Shown here in pieces: positions 25,245 to 32,500 of a stretch of DNA of 64,000 bases. The stretch lies in assembly GCF_054482595.1 (NCBI RefSeq), contig NZ_CM137008.1; one strand, written 5' to 3'. The position numbers and the translations under genes were made by a program. Numbering within the stretch: position 1 is the first letter of the stretch; the number at the start of each line of letters is the position of its first letter. A model generated the notes under the pieces. That model was not told the DNA's origin and searched no databases. It saw only the letters and a list, made by a program, of their open reading frames with translations.

Positions 25245-26408
25245 GTGGAACAGATTAATTCAAATAAAAAACATTCTAACAGAAGAAAATACTTTTCTTT
25301 ATTGGCGGTAGTTTTATTTATTGCGTTTTCAGGTGCCTATGCCTATTGGTCAATGGAATTAGAAGACATGATTAGTACAGATGACGCCTATGTCACGGGG
25401 AATGCAGATCCAATTTCTGCACAAGTCTCAGGTAGTGTCACTGTCGTTAATCATAAAGATACGAACTACGTTCGACAAGGTGACATTTTAGTTTCACTGG
25501 ATAAAACTGATGCCACTATCGCACTCAATAAAGCTAAAAATAATCTGGCAAATATTGTTCGGCAAACGAATAAACTGTACTTACAGGATAAACAATACAG
25601 TGCCGAAGTCGCTTCAGCACGTATTCAGTATCAACAATCTTTAGAAGATTATAACCGTCGTGTGCCTTTAGCGAAGCAGGGGGTTATTTCAAAAGAAACG
25701 CTGGAGCATACCAAAGATACGTTAATAAGTAGCAAAGCGGCATTGAATGCCGCTATCCAGGCTTATAAAGCGAATAAAGCTTTAGTAATGAACACACCAT
25801 TAAACCGTCAGCCACAAGTCGTGGAAGCGGCGGATGCAACCAAAGAAGCCTGGTTGGCGCTTAAACGTACGGATATTAAGAGTCCGGTTACCGGCTATAT
25901 TGCCCAGAGAAGTGTTCAGGTCGGCGAAACAGTGAGCCCCGGACAATCGTTAATGGCTGTCGTACCGGCACGTCAAATGTGGGTTAATGCCAACTTTAAA
26001 GAAACACAACTCACGGATGTACGGATTGGTCAATCGGTCAATATTATCAGCGATCTTTATGGTGAAAATGTTGTGTTTCATGGTCGGGTGACAGGGATCA
26101 ATATGGGAACCGGCAATGCGTTCTCCTTATTACCTGCACAAAATGCGACAGGGAACTGGATCAAAATCGTTCAGCGTGTACCGGTTGAAGTTTCTCTTGA
26201 TCCAAAAGAACTCATGGAACACCCCTTGCGCATTGGTTTATCGATGACTGCAACTATTGATACGAAGGACGAAGACATTGCTGAGATGCCTGATCTGGCT
26301 TCAACCGTGACCTCCATGCCTGCTTATACCAGTAAGGCTTTAGTTATCGATACCAGTCCGATAGAAAAAGAAATTAGCAACATTATTTCGCATAATGGAC
26401 AACTTTAA
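25245..26408 (+). CDS. emrK: Multidrug efflux membrane fusion protein (EmrA paralogue)
   Basis: 387 aa ORF, HlyD-family; exact start uncertain (several in-frame Met); overlaps emrY start (TAATG). Confidence 0.85.
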   Translation: MEQINSNKKHSNRRKYFSLLAVVLFIAFSGAYAYWSMELEDMISTDDAYVTGNADPISAQVSGSVTVVNHKDTNYVRQGDILVSLDKTDATIALNKAKNNLANIVRQTNKLYLQDKQYSAEVASARIQYQQSLEDYNRRVPLAKQGVISKETLEHTKDTLISSKAALNAAIQAYKANKALVMNTPLNRQPQVVEAADATKEAWLALKRTDIKSPVTGYIAQRSVQVGETVSPGQSLMAVVPARQMWVNANFKETQLTDVRIGQSVNIISDLYGENVVFHGRVTGINMGTGNAFSLLPAQNATGNWIKIVQRVPVEVSLDPKELMEHPLRIGLSMTATIDTKDEDIAEMPDLASTVTSMPAYTSKALVIDTSPIEKEISNIISHNGQL

Positions 26409-27946
26409 TGGCAATCACTAAATCAACTCCGGCACCATTAACCGGTGGGACGTTATGGTGCGTCACTATTGCATTGTCATTAGCGACGTTTATGCAAATG
26501 TTGGATTCCACTATTTCTAACGTCGCAATACCGACAATATCTGGCTTTCTGGGAGCGTCAACAGACGAAGGCACCTGGGTTATCACCTCGTTTGGCGTAG
26601 CAAATGCCATTGCGATCCCTGTTACCGGCAGGCTGGCACAAAGAATAGGCGAATTAAGGTTATTTTTACTTTCAGTCACTTTTTTTTCGCTGTCTTCCTT
26701 AATGTGTAGTTTATCGACCAATCTTGATGTTCTGATATTTTTTAGAGTCGTTCAGGGGTTAATGGCGGGGCCGTTAATTCCACTGTCACAGAGTTTATTA
26801 TTAAGGAATTATCCACCAGAAAAAAGGACATTTGCTCTGGCATTATGGTCAATGACCGTGATTATCGCTCCGATATGTGGGCCGATATTGGGCGGCTATA
26901 TTTGTGATAACTTTAGCTGGGGTTGGATATTTTTAATCAATGTCCCTATGGGGATTATCGTCCTGACATTATGCTTAACCTTACTTAAAGGAAGAGAAAC
27001 TGAGACTTCACCGGTCAAAATGAATCTACCAGGACTGACCCTGTTAGTGCTCGGTGTTGGTGGCTTGCAAATTATGCTTGATAAAGGGCGCGATCTGGAT
27101 TGGTTCAACTCGAGTACAATAATAATATTAACAGTAGTATCAGTTATTTCTCTGATCTCTTTAGTTATTTGGGAGTCGACCTCAGAGAACCCGATTCTTG
27201 ATCTCAGTTTGTTTAAGTCCCGTAATTTCACCATTGGTATAGTGAGTATCACATGCGCGTATTTATTTTACTCTGGAGCGATCGTCCTTATGCCGCAGTT
27301 ACTCCAGGAAACGATGGGGTATAATGCGATATGGGCCGGACTTGCTTATGCGCCCATCGGCATCATGCCACTATTAATTTCACCTTTGATAGGACGTTAT
27401 GGCAACAAAATAGACATGCGGTTGTTAGTGACATTTAGTTTTTTGATGTATGCGGTTTGCTATTACTGGCGTTCTGTGACATTTATGCCAACGATTGATT
27501 TTACAGGCATCATTTTGCCACAGTTTTTCCAGGGATTCGCCGTTGCCTGTTTCTTTTTACCCTTAACAACGATTTCGTTTTCAGGGTTGCCAGATAATAA
27601 ATTTGCCAATGCCTCGAGTATGAGTAATTTTTTTCGTACCTTGTCAGGATCAGTTGGTACGTCGTTGACAATGACGCTGTGGGGACGACGCGAATCGTTA
27701 CACCATAGTCAGTTGACAGCAACCATCGATCAATTTAACCCCGTGTTTAATTCATCGTCACAAATTATGGATAAATACTATGGTTCGCTTTCAGGAGTTC
27801 TTAATGAAATTAATAATGAAATAACCCAGCAGTCACTTTCTATTTCTGCAAATGAGATTTTCCGTATGGCGGCTATTGCTTTTATCTTACTTACGGTTTT
27901 GGTGTGGTTTGCGAAACCGCCGTTTACAGCGAAAGGCGTTGGGTGA
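26408..27946 (+). CDS. emrY: MFS multidrug efflux pump (EmrB paralogue)
   Basis: 512 aa ORF with the multi-helix layout expected of a 14-TMS MFS exporter; recognised EmrY. Confidence 0.9.
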   Translation: MAITKSTPAPLTGGTLWCVTIALSLATFMQMLDSTISNVAIPTISGFLGASTDEGTWVITSFGVANAIAIPVTGRLAQRIGELRLFLLSVTFFSLSSLMCSLSTNLDVLIFFRVVQGLMAGPLIPLSQSLLLRNYPPEKRTFALALWSMTVIIAPICGPILGGYICDNFSWGWIFLINVPMGIIVLTLCLTLLKGRETETSPVKMNLPGLTLLVLGVGGLQIMLDKGRDLDWFNSSTIIILTVVSVISLISLVIWESTSENPILDLSLFKSRNFTIGIVSITCAYLFYSGAIVLMPQLLQETMGYNAIWAGLAYAPIGIMPLLISPLIGRYGNKIDMRLLVTFSFLMYAVCYYWRSVTFMPTIDFTGIILPQFFQGFAVACFFLPLTTISFSGLPDNKFANASSMSNFFRTLSGSVGTSLTMTLWGRRESLHHSQLTATIDQFNPVFNSSSQIMDKYYGSLSGVLNEINNEITQQSLSISANEIFRMAAIAFILLTVLVWFAKPPFTAKGVG

Positions 27947-28053
27947 TGGTAAAAGCAGGGGGTTATAGCGGGTAAGACCGGGGATCTTAAGTCTGCGCCA
28001 TCGGCAGCATCGCTCACCCAGGGAAAGGATTGCGATGCTGCGTTGAAACGTTA

Positions 28054-29382
28054 TTAACGGCCTTTTGCCAGATATTGATTCATCTCTTCTTCCGGCACCA
28101 TTCCACCTCCCGTCGCCCACACCAGATGAGTGGTATTACGCAGTTGTTCTGCGCTGAAACCGTGCATCTGTTGGTAACTTACTGATGCACACACGCGCTG
28201 AGGTCCGGTCATACCCGCCAGTGCCGAAGGTTCAAGACGAATACCTTCTTCCTGCGCCAGCCAGCCAAGCATGTCATACATGGTTTGATCGCTAAGGGTA
28301 TAGAAGCCATCCAGCAGACGCTCCATTGCCCGCCCGACAAAGCCTGATGCGCGACCAACTGCAAGGCCATCCGCTGCGGTAAGGTTGTCGATACCAATAT
28401 CCTGAACAGAAATCTGATCGTGTAATCCTGTATGGATGCCTAACAGCATACAAGGGGAGTGCGTTGGTTCGGCAAAAAAGCAGTGAACATGATCGCCAAA
28501 CGCCAGTTTAAGTCCGAATGCGACGCCACCAGGACCACCGCCAACACCACACGGCAGATAGACAAACAGAGGGTTATCAGCATCGACGATACGGCCTTGC
28601 TGGGCAAATTGCGCTTTAAGACGCTGGCCAGCGACGGAATACCCAAGGAACAACGTGCGGGAATTTTCGTCATCAATAAAGAAACAGTTCGGGTCAGACT
28701 GCGCTGCTTTACGTCCTTCCTCGACGGCAACACCATAATCTTGCTCATATTCCACGACCGTAACGCCATGGCTGCGCAGTTTCGCTTTTTTCCATGCCCG
28801 GGCATCAGCAGACATATGCACTGTCACCTTAAAGCCAATGCGGGCGCTCATAATGCCGATTGATAACCCCAGATTTCCGGTTGAGCCCACAGCAATGCTG
28901 TATTGGCTAAAGAACTGTTTAAACTCCGGAGAAAGCAGTTTGCTGTAGTCATCATCAAGCGTCAGCAACCCCGCTTCCAGAGCCAGTTTTTCTGCGTGTG
29001 CCAGAACTTCATAAATCCCGCCGCGTGCTTTTATGGAGCCGGAAATGGGCAAATGGCTATCTTTTTTCAGTAACAGTTGCCCGCTGATCGGTTGTTGATA
29101 TTCCTTTTCCAGCCGTTTTTGCATAGCCGGAATGGCAACCAGTTCTGATTCAATAATCCCCCCAGTAGCAGCAGTTTCAGGAAATGCTTTTGCCAGATAG
29201 GGTGCAAAACGGGATAAGCGCGCATGGGCGTCCTGAACATCCTGTTCGGTCAGGCCAACATAAGGTAAACCTTCAGCCAATGAGGTCGTGCCAGGATTAA
29301 ACCAGGTGGTTTCTTTAAGAGCAACCAGATCCTTTACCAACGGATACTGGGCGATGAGCGAGTTCATTTTAGCGTTTTCCAT
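28054..29382 (-). CDS. dsdA: D-serine ammonia-lyase (PLP-dependent)
   Basis: 442 aa ORF with PLP-lysine motif (SGSIKARGG); recognised DsdA. Confidence 0.9.
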
Positions 29383-29399
29383 AGTACGTCTCTTTGCGC

Positions 29400-29630
29400 T
29401 TAGATGATAAATGACAGCAGGAATGTGCCCGCCAGAGCGACGACTGAAGCGATAAATGTCGCTGTCGTATAGTATTTAAATGTTTCATTGAGCGTAGCGC
29501 CGCAATATTGCTTCACCAGCCAGAAAAGCGAGTCCGTAACGATCGTGCAGCCAATTGCGCCTGAACCGATAGCAATCGCAATAATTTCCGGGCTGATGTC
29601 GGGATACAGCGGCAGCACAATGATCCATAT
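29400..29630 (-). pseudogene. dsdX: 3' remnant of dsdX (D-serine permease, GntP family)
   Basis: Only about 72 C-terminal codons (…[27 protein letters not shown]) remain; in-frame stop immediately upstream of 29630; the rest of dsdX and all of dsdC are absent. Confidence 0.7.
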
Positions 29631-29848
29631 TTATATTTTCTTCTCCAGGTTGGCGATGCCAGTTGGCATGTTTTTCTTACTTGCCTATATGGTTACTCGT
29701 TGGCGAGAACAGAGGCGGAATTGGGGACAATTGGCCGGGAATTATTGTTATTTTTTATTGTATTGCCGTGTCAGGTGATAGGGCGTTGGATCTCGCCAGT
29801 GACGTCTGTTTCTGCTACAGTGCCCGTTTTACGACAAACGGCTTGGGT

Positions 29849-30844
29849 ATGGCTTCATTAAAGGATGTCGCACGCCTGGCGGGAGTGTCGATGATGACAG
29901 TCTCCCGGGTGATGCATAATGCAGAATCTGTGCGTCCTGCAACGCGTGACCGCGTATTGCAGGCAATCCAGACCCTGAATTATGTTCCTGATCTTTCCGC
30001 CCGTAAGATGCGCGCTCAAGGACGTAAGCCGTCGACTCTCGCCGTGCTGGCGCAGGACACTGCTACCACTCCTTTCTCTGTTGATATTCTGCTTGCCATT
30101 GAGCAAACCGCCAGCGAGTTCGGCTGGAATAGTTTTTTAATCAATATTTTTTCTGAAGATGACGCTGCCCGCGCGGCACGTCAGCTGCTTGCTCACCGTC
30201 CGGATGGCATTATCTATACTACAATGGGGCTGCGACATATCACGCTGCCTGAGTCTCTGTATGGTGAAAATATTGTATTGGCGAACTGTGTGGCGGATGA
30301 CCCAGCGTTACCCAGTTATATCCCTGATGATTACACTGCACAATATGAATCAACACAGCATTTGCTCGCGGCGGGCTATCGTCAACCGTTATGCTTCTGG
30401 CTACCGGAAAGTGCGTTGGCAACAGGGTATCGTCGGCAGGGATTTGAGCAGGCCTGGCGTGATGCTGGACGAGATCTGGCTGAGGTGAAACAATTTCACA
30501 TGGCAACAGGTGATGATCACTACACCGATCTCGCAAGTTTACTCAATGACCACTTCAAATCGGGCAAACCAGATTTTGATGTTCTGATATGTGGTAACGA
30601 TCGCGCAGCCTTTGTGGCTTATCAGGTTCTCCTGGCGAAGGGGGTACGTATCCCGCAGGATGTCGCCGTAATGGGCTTTGATAATCTGGTTGGCGTCGGG
30701 CATCTGTTTTTACCGCCGCTGACCACAATTCAGCTTCCACATGACATTATCGGGCGGGAAGCTGCATTGCATATTATTGAAGGTCGTGAAGGGGGAAGTG
30801 TGACGCGGATCCCTTGCCCGCTGTTGATCCGTTGTTCCACCTGA
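29849..30844 (+). CDS. cscR: Sucrose operon repressor (LacI/GalR family)
   Basis: ORF 29663..30844; N-terminal HTH begins at MASLKDVARLAGVSMMTVSRV (29849), giving 331 aa. Confidence 0.85.
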   Translation: MASLKDVARLAGVSMMTVSRVMHNAESVRPATRDRVLQAIQTLNYVPDLSARKMRAQGRKPSTLAVLAQDTATTPFSVDILLAIEQTASEFGWNSFLINIFSEDDAARAARQLLAHRPDGIIYTTMGLRHITLPESLYGENIVLANCVADDPALPSYIPDDYTAQYESTQHLLAAGYRQPLCFWLPESALATGYRRQGFEQAWRDAGRDLAEVKQFHMATGDDHYTDLASLLNDHFKSGKPDFDVLICGNDRAAFVAYQVLLAKGVRIPQDVAVMGFDNLVGVGHLFLPPLTTIQLPHDIIGREAALHIIEGREGGSVTRIPCPLLIRCST

Positions 30845-30851
30845 TATTATG

Positions 30852-32285
30852 CTAACCCAGTTGCCAGAGTGCTCCATGTTGCACCACAGCCACTCCGTGG
30901 GAGGCATAAAGCGACAGTTCCCGTTCTTCTGGCTGCGGATAGATTCGACTACTCATCACCGCTTCCCCGTCGTTAATAAATACTTCCACGGATGATGTAT
31001 CGATAAATATCCTTAGGGCGAGCGTCTCACCCTGCGGGAGGAGAATACTACGGTAGCCGTCTAAATTCTCGTGTGGGTAATACCGCCACAAAACAAGTCG
31101 CTCAGATTGGTTATCAATATACAGCCGCATTCCAGTGCCGAGCTGTAATCCGTAATGTTCGGCATCACTGTTCTTCAGCGCCCACTGCAACTGAATCTCA
31201 ACTGCTTGCGCGTTTTCCTGCAAAACATATTTATTGCTGATTGTGCGGGGAGAGATAGATTGATGCTGCTGGCGTAACGACTCAGCTTCGTGTACCGGGC
31301 GTTGTAGGAGTTTGCCATTGCTCTCTGATAGCTCACGCGCCAGCGTCATGCAGCCTGCCCAGCCTTCACGTTTTGAGGGCATTGGCGATTCCCACATATC
31401 CATCCAGCCGATAACAATACGCCGACCATCCTTCGCTAAAAAGCTTTGTGGTGCATAAAAGTCATGCCCGTTATCAAGTTCAGTAAAATGCCCGGATTGT
31501 GCAAAAAGTCGTCCTGGCGACCACATTCCGGGTATTACGCCACTTTGAAAGCGATTTCGATAACTGTATCCCTCGGCATTCATTCCCTGCGGGGAAAACA
31601 TCAGATAATGCTGATCGCCAAGGCTGAAAAAGTCCGGACATTCCCACATATAGCTTTCACCCGCATCAGCGTGGGCCAGTACGCGATCGAAAGTCCATTC
31701 ACGTAATGAACTGCCGCGATAAAGCAGGATCTGCCCCGTGTTGCCTGGGTCTTTCGCCCCGACTACCATCCACCATGAGTCGGCTTCACGCCACACTTTA
31801 GGATCGCGGAAGTGCATGATTCCTTCTGGTGGAGTGAGGATCACACCCTGTTTCTCGAAATGAATACCATCCCGACTGGTAGCCAGACATTGTACTTCGC
31901 GAATTGCATCGTCATTACCTGCACCATCGAGCCAGACGTGTCCGGTGTAGATAAGTGAGAGGACACCATTGTCATCGACAGCACTACCTGAAAAACACCC
32001 GTCTTTGTCATTCTCGTCTCCTGGCGCTAGCGCAATAGGCTCATGCTGCCAGTGGATCATATCGTCGCTGGTAGCATGTCCCCAGTGCATTGGCCCCCAG
32101 TGTTCGCTCATCGGGTGATGTTGATAAAACGCGTGATAACGATCGTTAAACCAGATCAGGCCGTTTGGATCGTTCATCCACCCGGCAGGAGGCGCGAGGT
32201 GAAAATGGGGATAGAAAGTGTTACCCCGGTGCTCATGAAGTTTTGCTAGTGCGTTTTGCGCTGCATGCAATCGAGATTGCGTCAT
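30852..32285 (-). CDS. cscA: Sucrose-6-phosphate hydrolase / invertase (GH32)
   Basis: GH32 motifs (WMNDPNG, FRDPKV, WECPD); ORF extends to 32294, start taken at MTQSRLHAAQ. Confidence 0.85.
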   Translation of the reverse strand: MTQSRLHAAQNALAKLHEHRGNTFYPHFHLAPPAGWMNDPNGLIWFNDRYHAFYQHHPMSEHWGPMHWGHATSDDMIHWQHEPIALAPGDENDKDGCFSGSAVDDNGVLSLIYTGHVWLDGAGNDDAIREVQCLATSRDGIHFEKQGVILTPPEGIMHFRDPKVWREADSWWMVVGAKDPGNTGQILLYRGSSLREWTFDRVLAHADAGESYMWECPDFFSLGDQHYLMFSPQGMNAEGYSYRNRFQSGVIPGMWSPGRLFAQSGHFTELDNGHDFYAPQSFLAKDGRRIVIGWMDMWESPMPSKREGWAGCMTLARELSESNGKLLQRPVHEAESLRQQHQSISPRTISNKYVLQENAQAVEIQLQWALKNSDAEHYGLQLGTGMRLYIDNQSERLVLWRYYPHENLDGYRSILLPQGETLALRIFIDTSSVEVFINDGEAVMSSRIYPQPEERELSLYASHGVAVVQHGALWQLG

Positions 32286-32319
32286 TTTAATCATCCTGGT
32301 TAAGCAAATTTGGTGAATT

Positions 32320-32331
32320 GTTAACGTTAAC
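32320..32331. promoter_or_regulatory. Candidate CscR operator (perfect palindrome GTTAACGTTAAC), copy 1
   Basis: 12 bp perfect palindrome in the cscA/cscK divergent promoter; identical copy 64 bp downstream. Confidence 0.5.
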
Positions 32332-32364
32332 TTTTATAAAAATAAAGTCCCTTACTTTCATAAA

Positions 32365-32380
32365 TGCGATGAATATCACA
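32365..32380. promoter_or_regulatory. CRP-like site in the csc divergent promoter
   Basis: TGCGA-tgaata-TCACA resembles the TGTGA-N6-TCACA consensus with one mismatch. Confidence 0.35.
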
Positions 32381-32383
32381 AAT

Positions 32384-32395
32384 GTTAACGTTAAC
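32384..32395. promoter_or_regulatory. Candidate CscR operator (perfect palindrome GTTAACGTTAAC), copy 2
   Basis: Identical 12 bp palindrome; central CG as in many LacI-family operators. Confidence 0.5.
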
Positions 32396-32500
32396 TATGA
32401 CATTTTGTGATCGAATATGCATGTTTTAGTAAATCCATGACGATTTTGCGAAAAAGAGGTTTATCACTATGCGTAAGTCAGATGAATTTAAGGGAAAAAA

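Follow-up and report, generated by a model that had tools for sequence, protein, structure and literature searches.

Gene content of the locus

The stretch of DNA analyzed here (64,000 nucleotides, hereafter the window) is ordinary E. coli chromosome that extends from glk through the yfc fimbrial genes. At the locus of interest, the gene order is emrY-dsdA-dsdX'-cscR-cscA-cscK-cscB-argW-yfdC, where dsdX' is a remnant of dsdX. The following features were assigned:

26408 to 27946, plus strand: emrY, the conserved left flank, convergent with dsdA (EmrB-family profile; annotated in XH990 and K-12)
28054 to 29382, minus strand: dsdA, D-serine ammonia-lyase, 442 aa, intact (TIGR02035 profile and comparison with K-12)
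29383 to 29399, minus strand: native dsdX-dsdA spacer of 17 bp with the dsdA ribosome-binding site, unchanged relative to K-12 (alignment)
29400 to 29617, minus strand: what is left of dsdX, namely the codons for residues 374-445 (the final 72) and the stop, without a start, a promoter and the N-terminal 373 residues (NF007395, tblastn and blastn)
29617 to 29618, no strand: replacement breakpoint, ...CGGCAGCA / CAATGATCC... (alignment)
29618 to 29848, no strand: junction of 231 bp that precedes cscR and belongs to the csc cassette (alignment and scans)
29849 to 30844, plus strand: cscR, sucrose repressor of the LacI family, 331 aa, reading away from dsdA (LacI-family profiles; XH990 annotation)
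30852 to 32285, minus strand: cscA, sucrose hydrolase/invertase, which lies 1.47 kb upstream of dsdA in the same orientation (TIGR01322, 477 bits; annotation)
32501 to 33415, plus strand: cscK, fructokinase (NF006957, 506 bits against a cut-off of 450)
33487 to 34734, plus strand: cscB, sucrose:H+ symporter of the oligosaccharide MFS type (TIGR00882, 593 bits)
34814 to 34966, minus strand: fragment of a small DUF4942 ORF, flanked by cscB and argW (annotated in XH990 and O157:H7)
35176 to 35250, minus strand: argW, tRNA-Arg(CCT), the right boundary and a recombination/integration hotspot (ARAGORN)
35326 to 36258, minus strand: yfdC, the conserved right flank (annotation; FNT-family match)

A preliminary description of this DNA, made from the sequence alone, had claimed that dsdA is intact, that about 72 C-terminal codons of dsdX remain and that dsdC is absent from the locus, and all three statements were borne out. 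The dsdA reading frame (28054-29382, minus strand) consists of 442 uninterrupted codons with one start and a single terminal stop. In profile searches, the predicted protein scored 814.2 bits against the equivalog TIGR02035 (cut-off 368), with residues 9-438 covered, and 775.8 bits against NF002823 (cut-off 246). The lysine that forms the Schiff base with PLP is presumably Lys118, as in the structure of E. coli DsdA, and the PLP-lysine motif SGSIKARGG is intact in the window, as it is in all 15 comparison alleles. Judged from the profile match, the open frame and the conserved motif, the window's dsdA is thus a full-length D-serine ammonia-lyase gene.

That the gene is a decaying relic, inactivated by missense changes despite its open frame, is very improbable. 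Two of the 442 residues differ from K-12 DsdA (V316I and A392T), and these would be the candidates for such damage; however, both changes are conservative and the same I316/T392 allele also occurs in the dsdCXA-positive strain O145:H28 RM12581. The retained lysine motif and an equivalog score well over the cut-off also speak against a relic, as does the full length of dsdA in each of the nine csc-positive genomes examined. Furthermore, the DsdA protein of EHEC is enzymatically competent once transcription is on (PMC7486766), and by transfer from O157:H7, with its identical breakpoint, a working enzyme is predicted for the window.

The dsdA gene is located directly downstream of the dsdX remnant, as in the dsdCXA layout. 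The ORF at 29400-29618 (minus strand) aligns to residues 374-445 of the 445-aa DsdX protein (profile NF007395), with 98.6% identity to K-12 DsdX over 72 aa in a tblastn search. Nucleotide homology to the emrY-dsdA-dsdX segment of K-12 spans positions 27900-29617 at 99.1% identity and ends exactly at 29617 (blastn), so that the remnant comprises exactly 72 codons and the dsdC-dsdX intergenic region is absent; the possibility, raised in the preliminary description, that the junction preserves a longer dsdX is thereby removed. A tblastn search with K-12 DsdC against the whole 64-kb window gave no match at E<0.01. The locus hence has no divergent dsdC, no full-length 445-aa dsdX and no upstream promoter region of the functional dsdCXA type. 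The dsdC-dsdX intergenic region is what we take to be the site of the DsdC-dependent dsdXA promoter, and with dsdC, this control region and dsdX codons 1-373 gone, induction by D-serine and uptake through DsdX are impossible from this locus. At the matching positions, the RefSeq annotation of strain XH990 reads "dsdA" and "DsdX, incomplete, missing N-terminus".

Strain XH990 was isolated from human urine and is nearly identical to the window, with 99.985% identity over 13.5 kb (one mismatch and one 1-bp gap); its annotation gives each of the four csc genes as intact. A further 25 kb of the window is 100% identical to XH990 and several relatives. The window's lineage is non-O157. Between dsdX' and argW, the cassette runs cscR(+) cscA(-) cscK(+) cscB(+) and shares its dsdX breakpoint with the replacement of the EDL933/EC3132 type.

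Several side observations concern the surroundings of the cassette. The emrK gene (25245-26408) is an intact ORF of 387 codons in the window and is annotated as frameshifted in XH990, which probably corresponds to the lone 1-bp gap in the 13.5 kb. By its position and the gene order given in PMC7486766, the DUF4942 ORF is probably the counterpart of z3622 in EDL933; its annotated length varies across csc-positive genomes (90, 153, 183 or 240 bp). In other csc-positive genomes, cscB contains an internal stop (N2208) or the cassette is interrupted by an IS3 element (PE164, E105). To the right of the locus, most E. coli genomes match positions 36001-61000 (mlaA, fadL, fadIJ and the yfc fimbrial genes) at 90-95% mean identity and 22 records match at 99% or more; part of this segment, probably the fimbrial operon, is unusually divergent between lineages.

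Junction and expression of dsdA

Upstream of dsdA lie, in order, 218 bp of promoterless dsdX, 231 bp from the region upstream of cscR, and cscR itself in antiparallel orientation. We aligned the junctions of the window, of six further csc-positive lineages and of two dsdCXA-positive strains. The breakpoint was identical in all seven csc-positive lineages (the window, O157:H7 F8797 and five others) and the 17-bp spacer between dsdX and dsdA was invariant in all nine sequences. The differences among the aligned csc-positive lineages are small indels located deeper in the region upstream of cscR. A 219-bp dsdX pseudogene and an intact dsdA CDS of 1,329 bp were found in eight of eight annotated csc-positive genomes from varied backgrounds, including O157:H7. 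The junction of the window and that of O157:H7 are separated by about eight SNPs and, upstream of cscR, by an indel of 12 bp. The 12-bp segment, CGTYGAGAATWT, is missing in the window (between 29783 and 29784, some 65 bp before cscR starts at 29849) and in EC052, whereas O157:H7 and four further csc-positive lineages have it in front of cscR. From its position, its deletion could affect the cscR promoter or operator. A plus-strand hairpin, GGTTGGCGATGCCAGTT...GGCATGTTTT, is located at 29648-29669, just on the csc side of the breakpoint, and a 13-bp deletion takes out part of this hairpin in CUVET20-PYO2.

We scanned the junction for signals that could govern transcription of dsdA. A consensus scan of both strands over 27900-32600 identified no sigma-70-like site, and a relaxed scan of the dsdA strand gave matches at 8 of 12 positions only, none of which faced dsdA and was present in the window but missing from O157:H7; since the real cscA, cscKB and cscR promoters were missed as well, the scan is insensitive and such a null result is weak evidence. 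The suggestion in the preliminary description that a new promoter inside the junction may drive dsdA found no sequence support in these scans, insensitive as they are, and with nothing specific to the window as compared to O157:H7 it was rejected as unsupported. On the dsdA strand, no terminator-like hairpin was identified from the cscA stop to dsdX', which makes read-through from the cscA promoter (cscAp) compatible with the sequence. The one terminator-like hairpin identified on this strand is situated within dsdX', and the functional operon of K-12 contains it too.

Taken together, the locus very probably represents the canonical argW-linked replacement in which cscRAKB has taken the place of dsdC and of the first 373 dsdX codons, with dsdA left intact but latent. 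Still present are dsdA with its ribosome-binding site and the final 72 dsdX codons, while the activator gene and the dsdC-dsdX intergenic region are gone. By transfer from O157:H7, dsdA is predicted to be transcribed only very weakly and independently of D-serine, and the strain is predicted to be sucrose-positive, with no growth on D-serine and with inhibition by this compound in minimal medium. The earlier proposal that dsdA may be silent, cut off from DsdC and the dsdXA promoter, agrees with the breakpoint shared with O157:H7 and with the intact, uninduced dsdA of EHEC (PMC7486766, PMC13012123), and silence in the window's lineage is argued by analogy with that strain. In EHEC, the intact gene was silent, wild-type upstream fragments gave low GFP signals and the strain was growth-inhibited by D-serine (PMC7486766). 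A paper from 2026 likewise states that the allele "remains intact" and that upregulation is impossible (PMC13012123). In a set of commensal and Crohn's disease isolates, which were typed by a triplex PCR across exactly the dsd/csc junction, the use of D-serine followed the dsd locus strictly, and the use of sucrose followed csc less strictly (PMC13054288).

A latent dsdA may be switched on by rearrangement. Deletions of the approximately 1-kb antisense-cscR stretch would place the CscR-controlled cscA promoter directly upstream of the gene, and alternatively the promoter of the small ORF beside cscB could be brought to the same position. Such events have been described in EHEC, where spontaneous deletions of 1,120 bp or 5,637 bp, or a clean deletion of cscR, activate dsdA via cscAp or z3622p (PMC7486766).

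The alternative, which we consider unlikely, is that dsdA is conditionally transcribed in the undeleted arrangement, either by read-through that starts 2.9 kb upstream at the CscR-repressed cscA promoter on the same strand, or from some weak promoter within the junction. The co-orientation of cscA and dsdA, with no terminator-like hairpin on that strand between them, would permit it, and in EHEC the clean cscR deletion conferred tolerance to D-serine, which was reversed by cscR in trans (PMC7486766). The basal activity of the recA promoter, an SOS reporter, was slightly increased in an EHEC dsdA knockout (PMC13012123), which hints at trace expression of dsdA. However, the low reporter output from wild-type upstream fragments and the D-serine sensitivity of wild-type EHEC (PMC7486766) argue against appreciable read-through, the scans revealed no promoter-like sites, and an RNA with about 1 kb of untranslated antisense-cscR sequence, together with convergent transcription of cscR, would favor Rho-dependent termination. 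We found no report in the literature in which sucrose-induced expression of dsdA was tested in wild-type strains. If read-through does occur, detoxification of D-serine would be rewired to a dietary-sugar signal and depend on sucrose instead of on D-serine.

Measures of selection have a bearing on the same alternative. The pairwise dN/dS of dsdA is 0.052 within the csc-positive genomes and 0.051 within the dsdCXA-positive genomes, and the low value in csc-positive genomes, equal to that in dsdCXA-positive genomes, might be taken as support for read-through; but it is uninformative, since the alleles are common to dsdCXA-positive backgrounds. Because csc-positive and dsd-positive genomes share near-identical alleles, dN/dS was dropped as a sign of ongoing selection on the orphan gene. 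It is unlikely, though compatible with the sequence, that the orphan dsdA is kept by selection via low-level or sucrose-dependent read-through from cscAp.

Distribution among E. coli genomes and proposed exchange of cassettes

The whole arrangement was identified in 2,646 of 5,426 complete E. coli genomes (about 49%), as counted with a 7.5-kb query from dsdA to yfdC that had to be covered to at least 80%. Any match to the csc cassette was obtained in 2,821 genomes and any match to the 5'dsdX-dsdC segment in 2,771, with a union of 5,386, so that both csc and dsdC can be present in at most 206 genomes (about 4%). The remaining 40 of the 5,426 genomes match neither segment, which implies that a third state of the argW locus exists. 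As judged from the junction alignment, the arrangement goes back to one ancestral replacement and has since become widespread. The preliminary description had mentioned a trade-off of csc for dsd as described for some pathotypes; the trade-off itself is recovered here as the canonical csc replacement with the O157:H7 breakpoint, whereas the restriction to pathotypes does not agree with its presence in about half of the complete genomes.

A full second copy of dsdCXA at another site, of the kind that many K1/B2 strains have, would mean that the strain is not phenotypically dsd-negative. Some E. coli genomes match the dsdX-dsdC query in two places, csc and dsdC co-occur in up to the 206 genomes mentioned above, and Moritz and Welch 2006 reportedly described two copies in K1 strains. 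We searched for such a copy with a chimeric query composed of the window's csc cassette and the 5'-dsdX-dsdC segment of K-12, and compared the matching places with those obtained for csc alone. At megablast sensitivity, no second dsdC or 5' dsdX was identified in any of the 15 complete genomes with a 100% identical csc cassette, XH990 included, and the chimeric query added no matching place in these genomes. In a sample of 30 csc-positive genomes drawn evenly along the ranking, 28 had a single place. A DsdC protein acting in trans would still find no DsdC-dependent promoter at the orphan dsdA. We therefore regard a second copy as a most improbable explanation, and the reading of dsdA as an orphan, for which the preliminary description had named a full dsdC/dsdX copy elsewhere as the counter-evidence, stands.

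We also compared the dsdA alleles in a distance matrix (window positions 27947-29617 against loci L002-L015). The alleles follow the strain background and not the csc/dsdCX state. For example, N2208 (csc-positive) and K-12 (dsd-positive) are 1 nt apart in 1,671 nt, and PYO2 (csc-positive) differs by 6 nt from FDAARGOS_1293 (dsd-positive) as compared to about 97 nt from the other csc-positive alleles. This sharing of alleles between csc-positive and dsd-positive genomes indicates that most of the divergence in dsdA either predates the present state of the locus or came by recombination.

That the alleles track the background suggests that the cassettes are exchanged by recombination. The csc and dsdCX segments would be alternative cassettes that replace each other through homologous recombination in the flanking dsdA/dsdX' and argW/yfdC arms, and dsdA would have been repeatedly inherited from, and returned to, functional contexts. 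Swapping of this kind is probably why dsdA stays intact, and the orphan state in any single lineage may be young. The description of argW in the literature as a recombination hotspot agrees with an exchange of cassettes.

Relation to known dsd and csc loci

The replacement is credited in later papers to Alaeddinoglu and Charles 1979, Jahreis 2002 and Moritz and Welch 2006, and Connolly 2015 is said to have linked the arrangement to niche restriction. The state of the locus decides between use and tolerance of D-serine and use of sucrose in E. coli; D-serine is abundant in urine and brain, and a tie between locus state and the niche restriction of LEE-positive pathogens has been published. For the window, this amounts to a genotype call only (csc-type, dsdCX-negative), with a sucrose-positive and D-serine-sensitive phenotype predicted. 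The arrangement and its consequences are common, ordinary and already published, from 1979 onward, with the regulation dissected in 2020 (PMC7486766). What is added here is quantitative, namely the proportion of genomes with the identical replacement, the upper limit on genomes with both csc and dsdC, and the tracking of strain background by dsdA alleles, which fits recurrent exchange of cassettes.

The closest known system is the locus of O157:H7 EDL933/TUV93-0 (also of EC3132, W and ATCC 8739), which has the same gene order and orientations as the window. In O157:H7, the dsdX breakpoint is identical, with 72 codons left, the intact dsdA measures 1,329 bp and argW is located on the far side. 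Its csc cassette is 98.9% identical to that of the window, and ATCC 8739 is among the csc matches at 99.5%. The two loci differ in the DUF4942 ORF, which is 153 bp in the window as compared to 183 bp in O157:H7, and at the right end, where the match to O157:H7 ends before argW with a recombinase gene after the DUF4942 ORF, whereas argW and yfdC follow directly in the window.

The intact dsdCXA locus of K-12 and CFT073 is collinear with the window in emrY, dsdA, the spacer and the last 218 bp of dsdX, at the 99.1% identity to K-12 given above. It contains in addition the dsdC gene, the control region between dsdC and dsdX, and codons 1-373 of dsdX, all three of which are missing from the window.

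Finally, the evolved EHEC strains LCV2 and LCV10B (O'Boyle et al. 2020, PMC7486766) started from the architecture seen in the window and show what an orphan dsdA can become. In these strains, deletions of 1,120 bp or 5,637 bp have joined dsdX'-dsdA to cscAp or z3622p (PMC7486766), whereas the window has the undeleted wild-type csc arrangement with its four csc genes intact.
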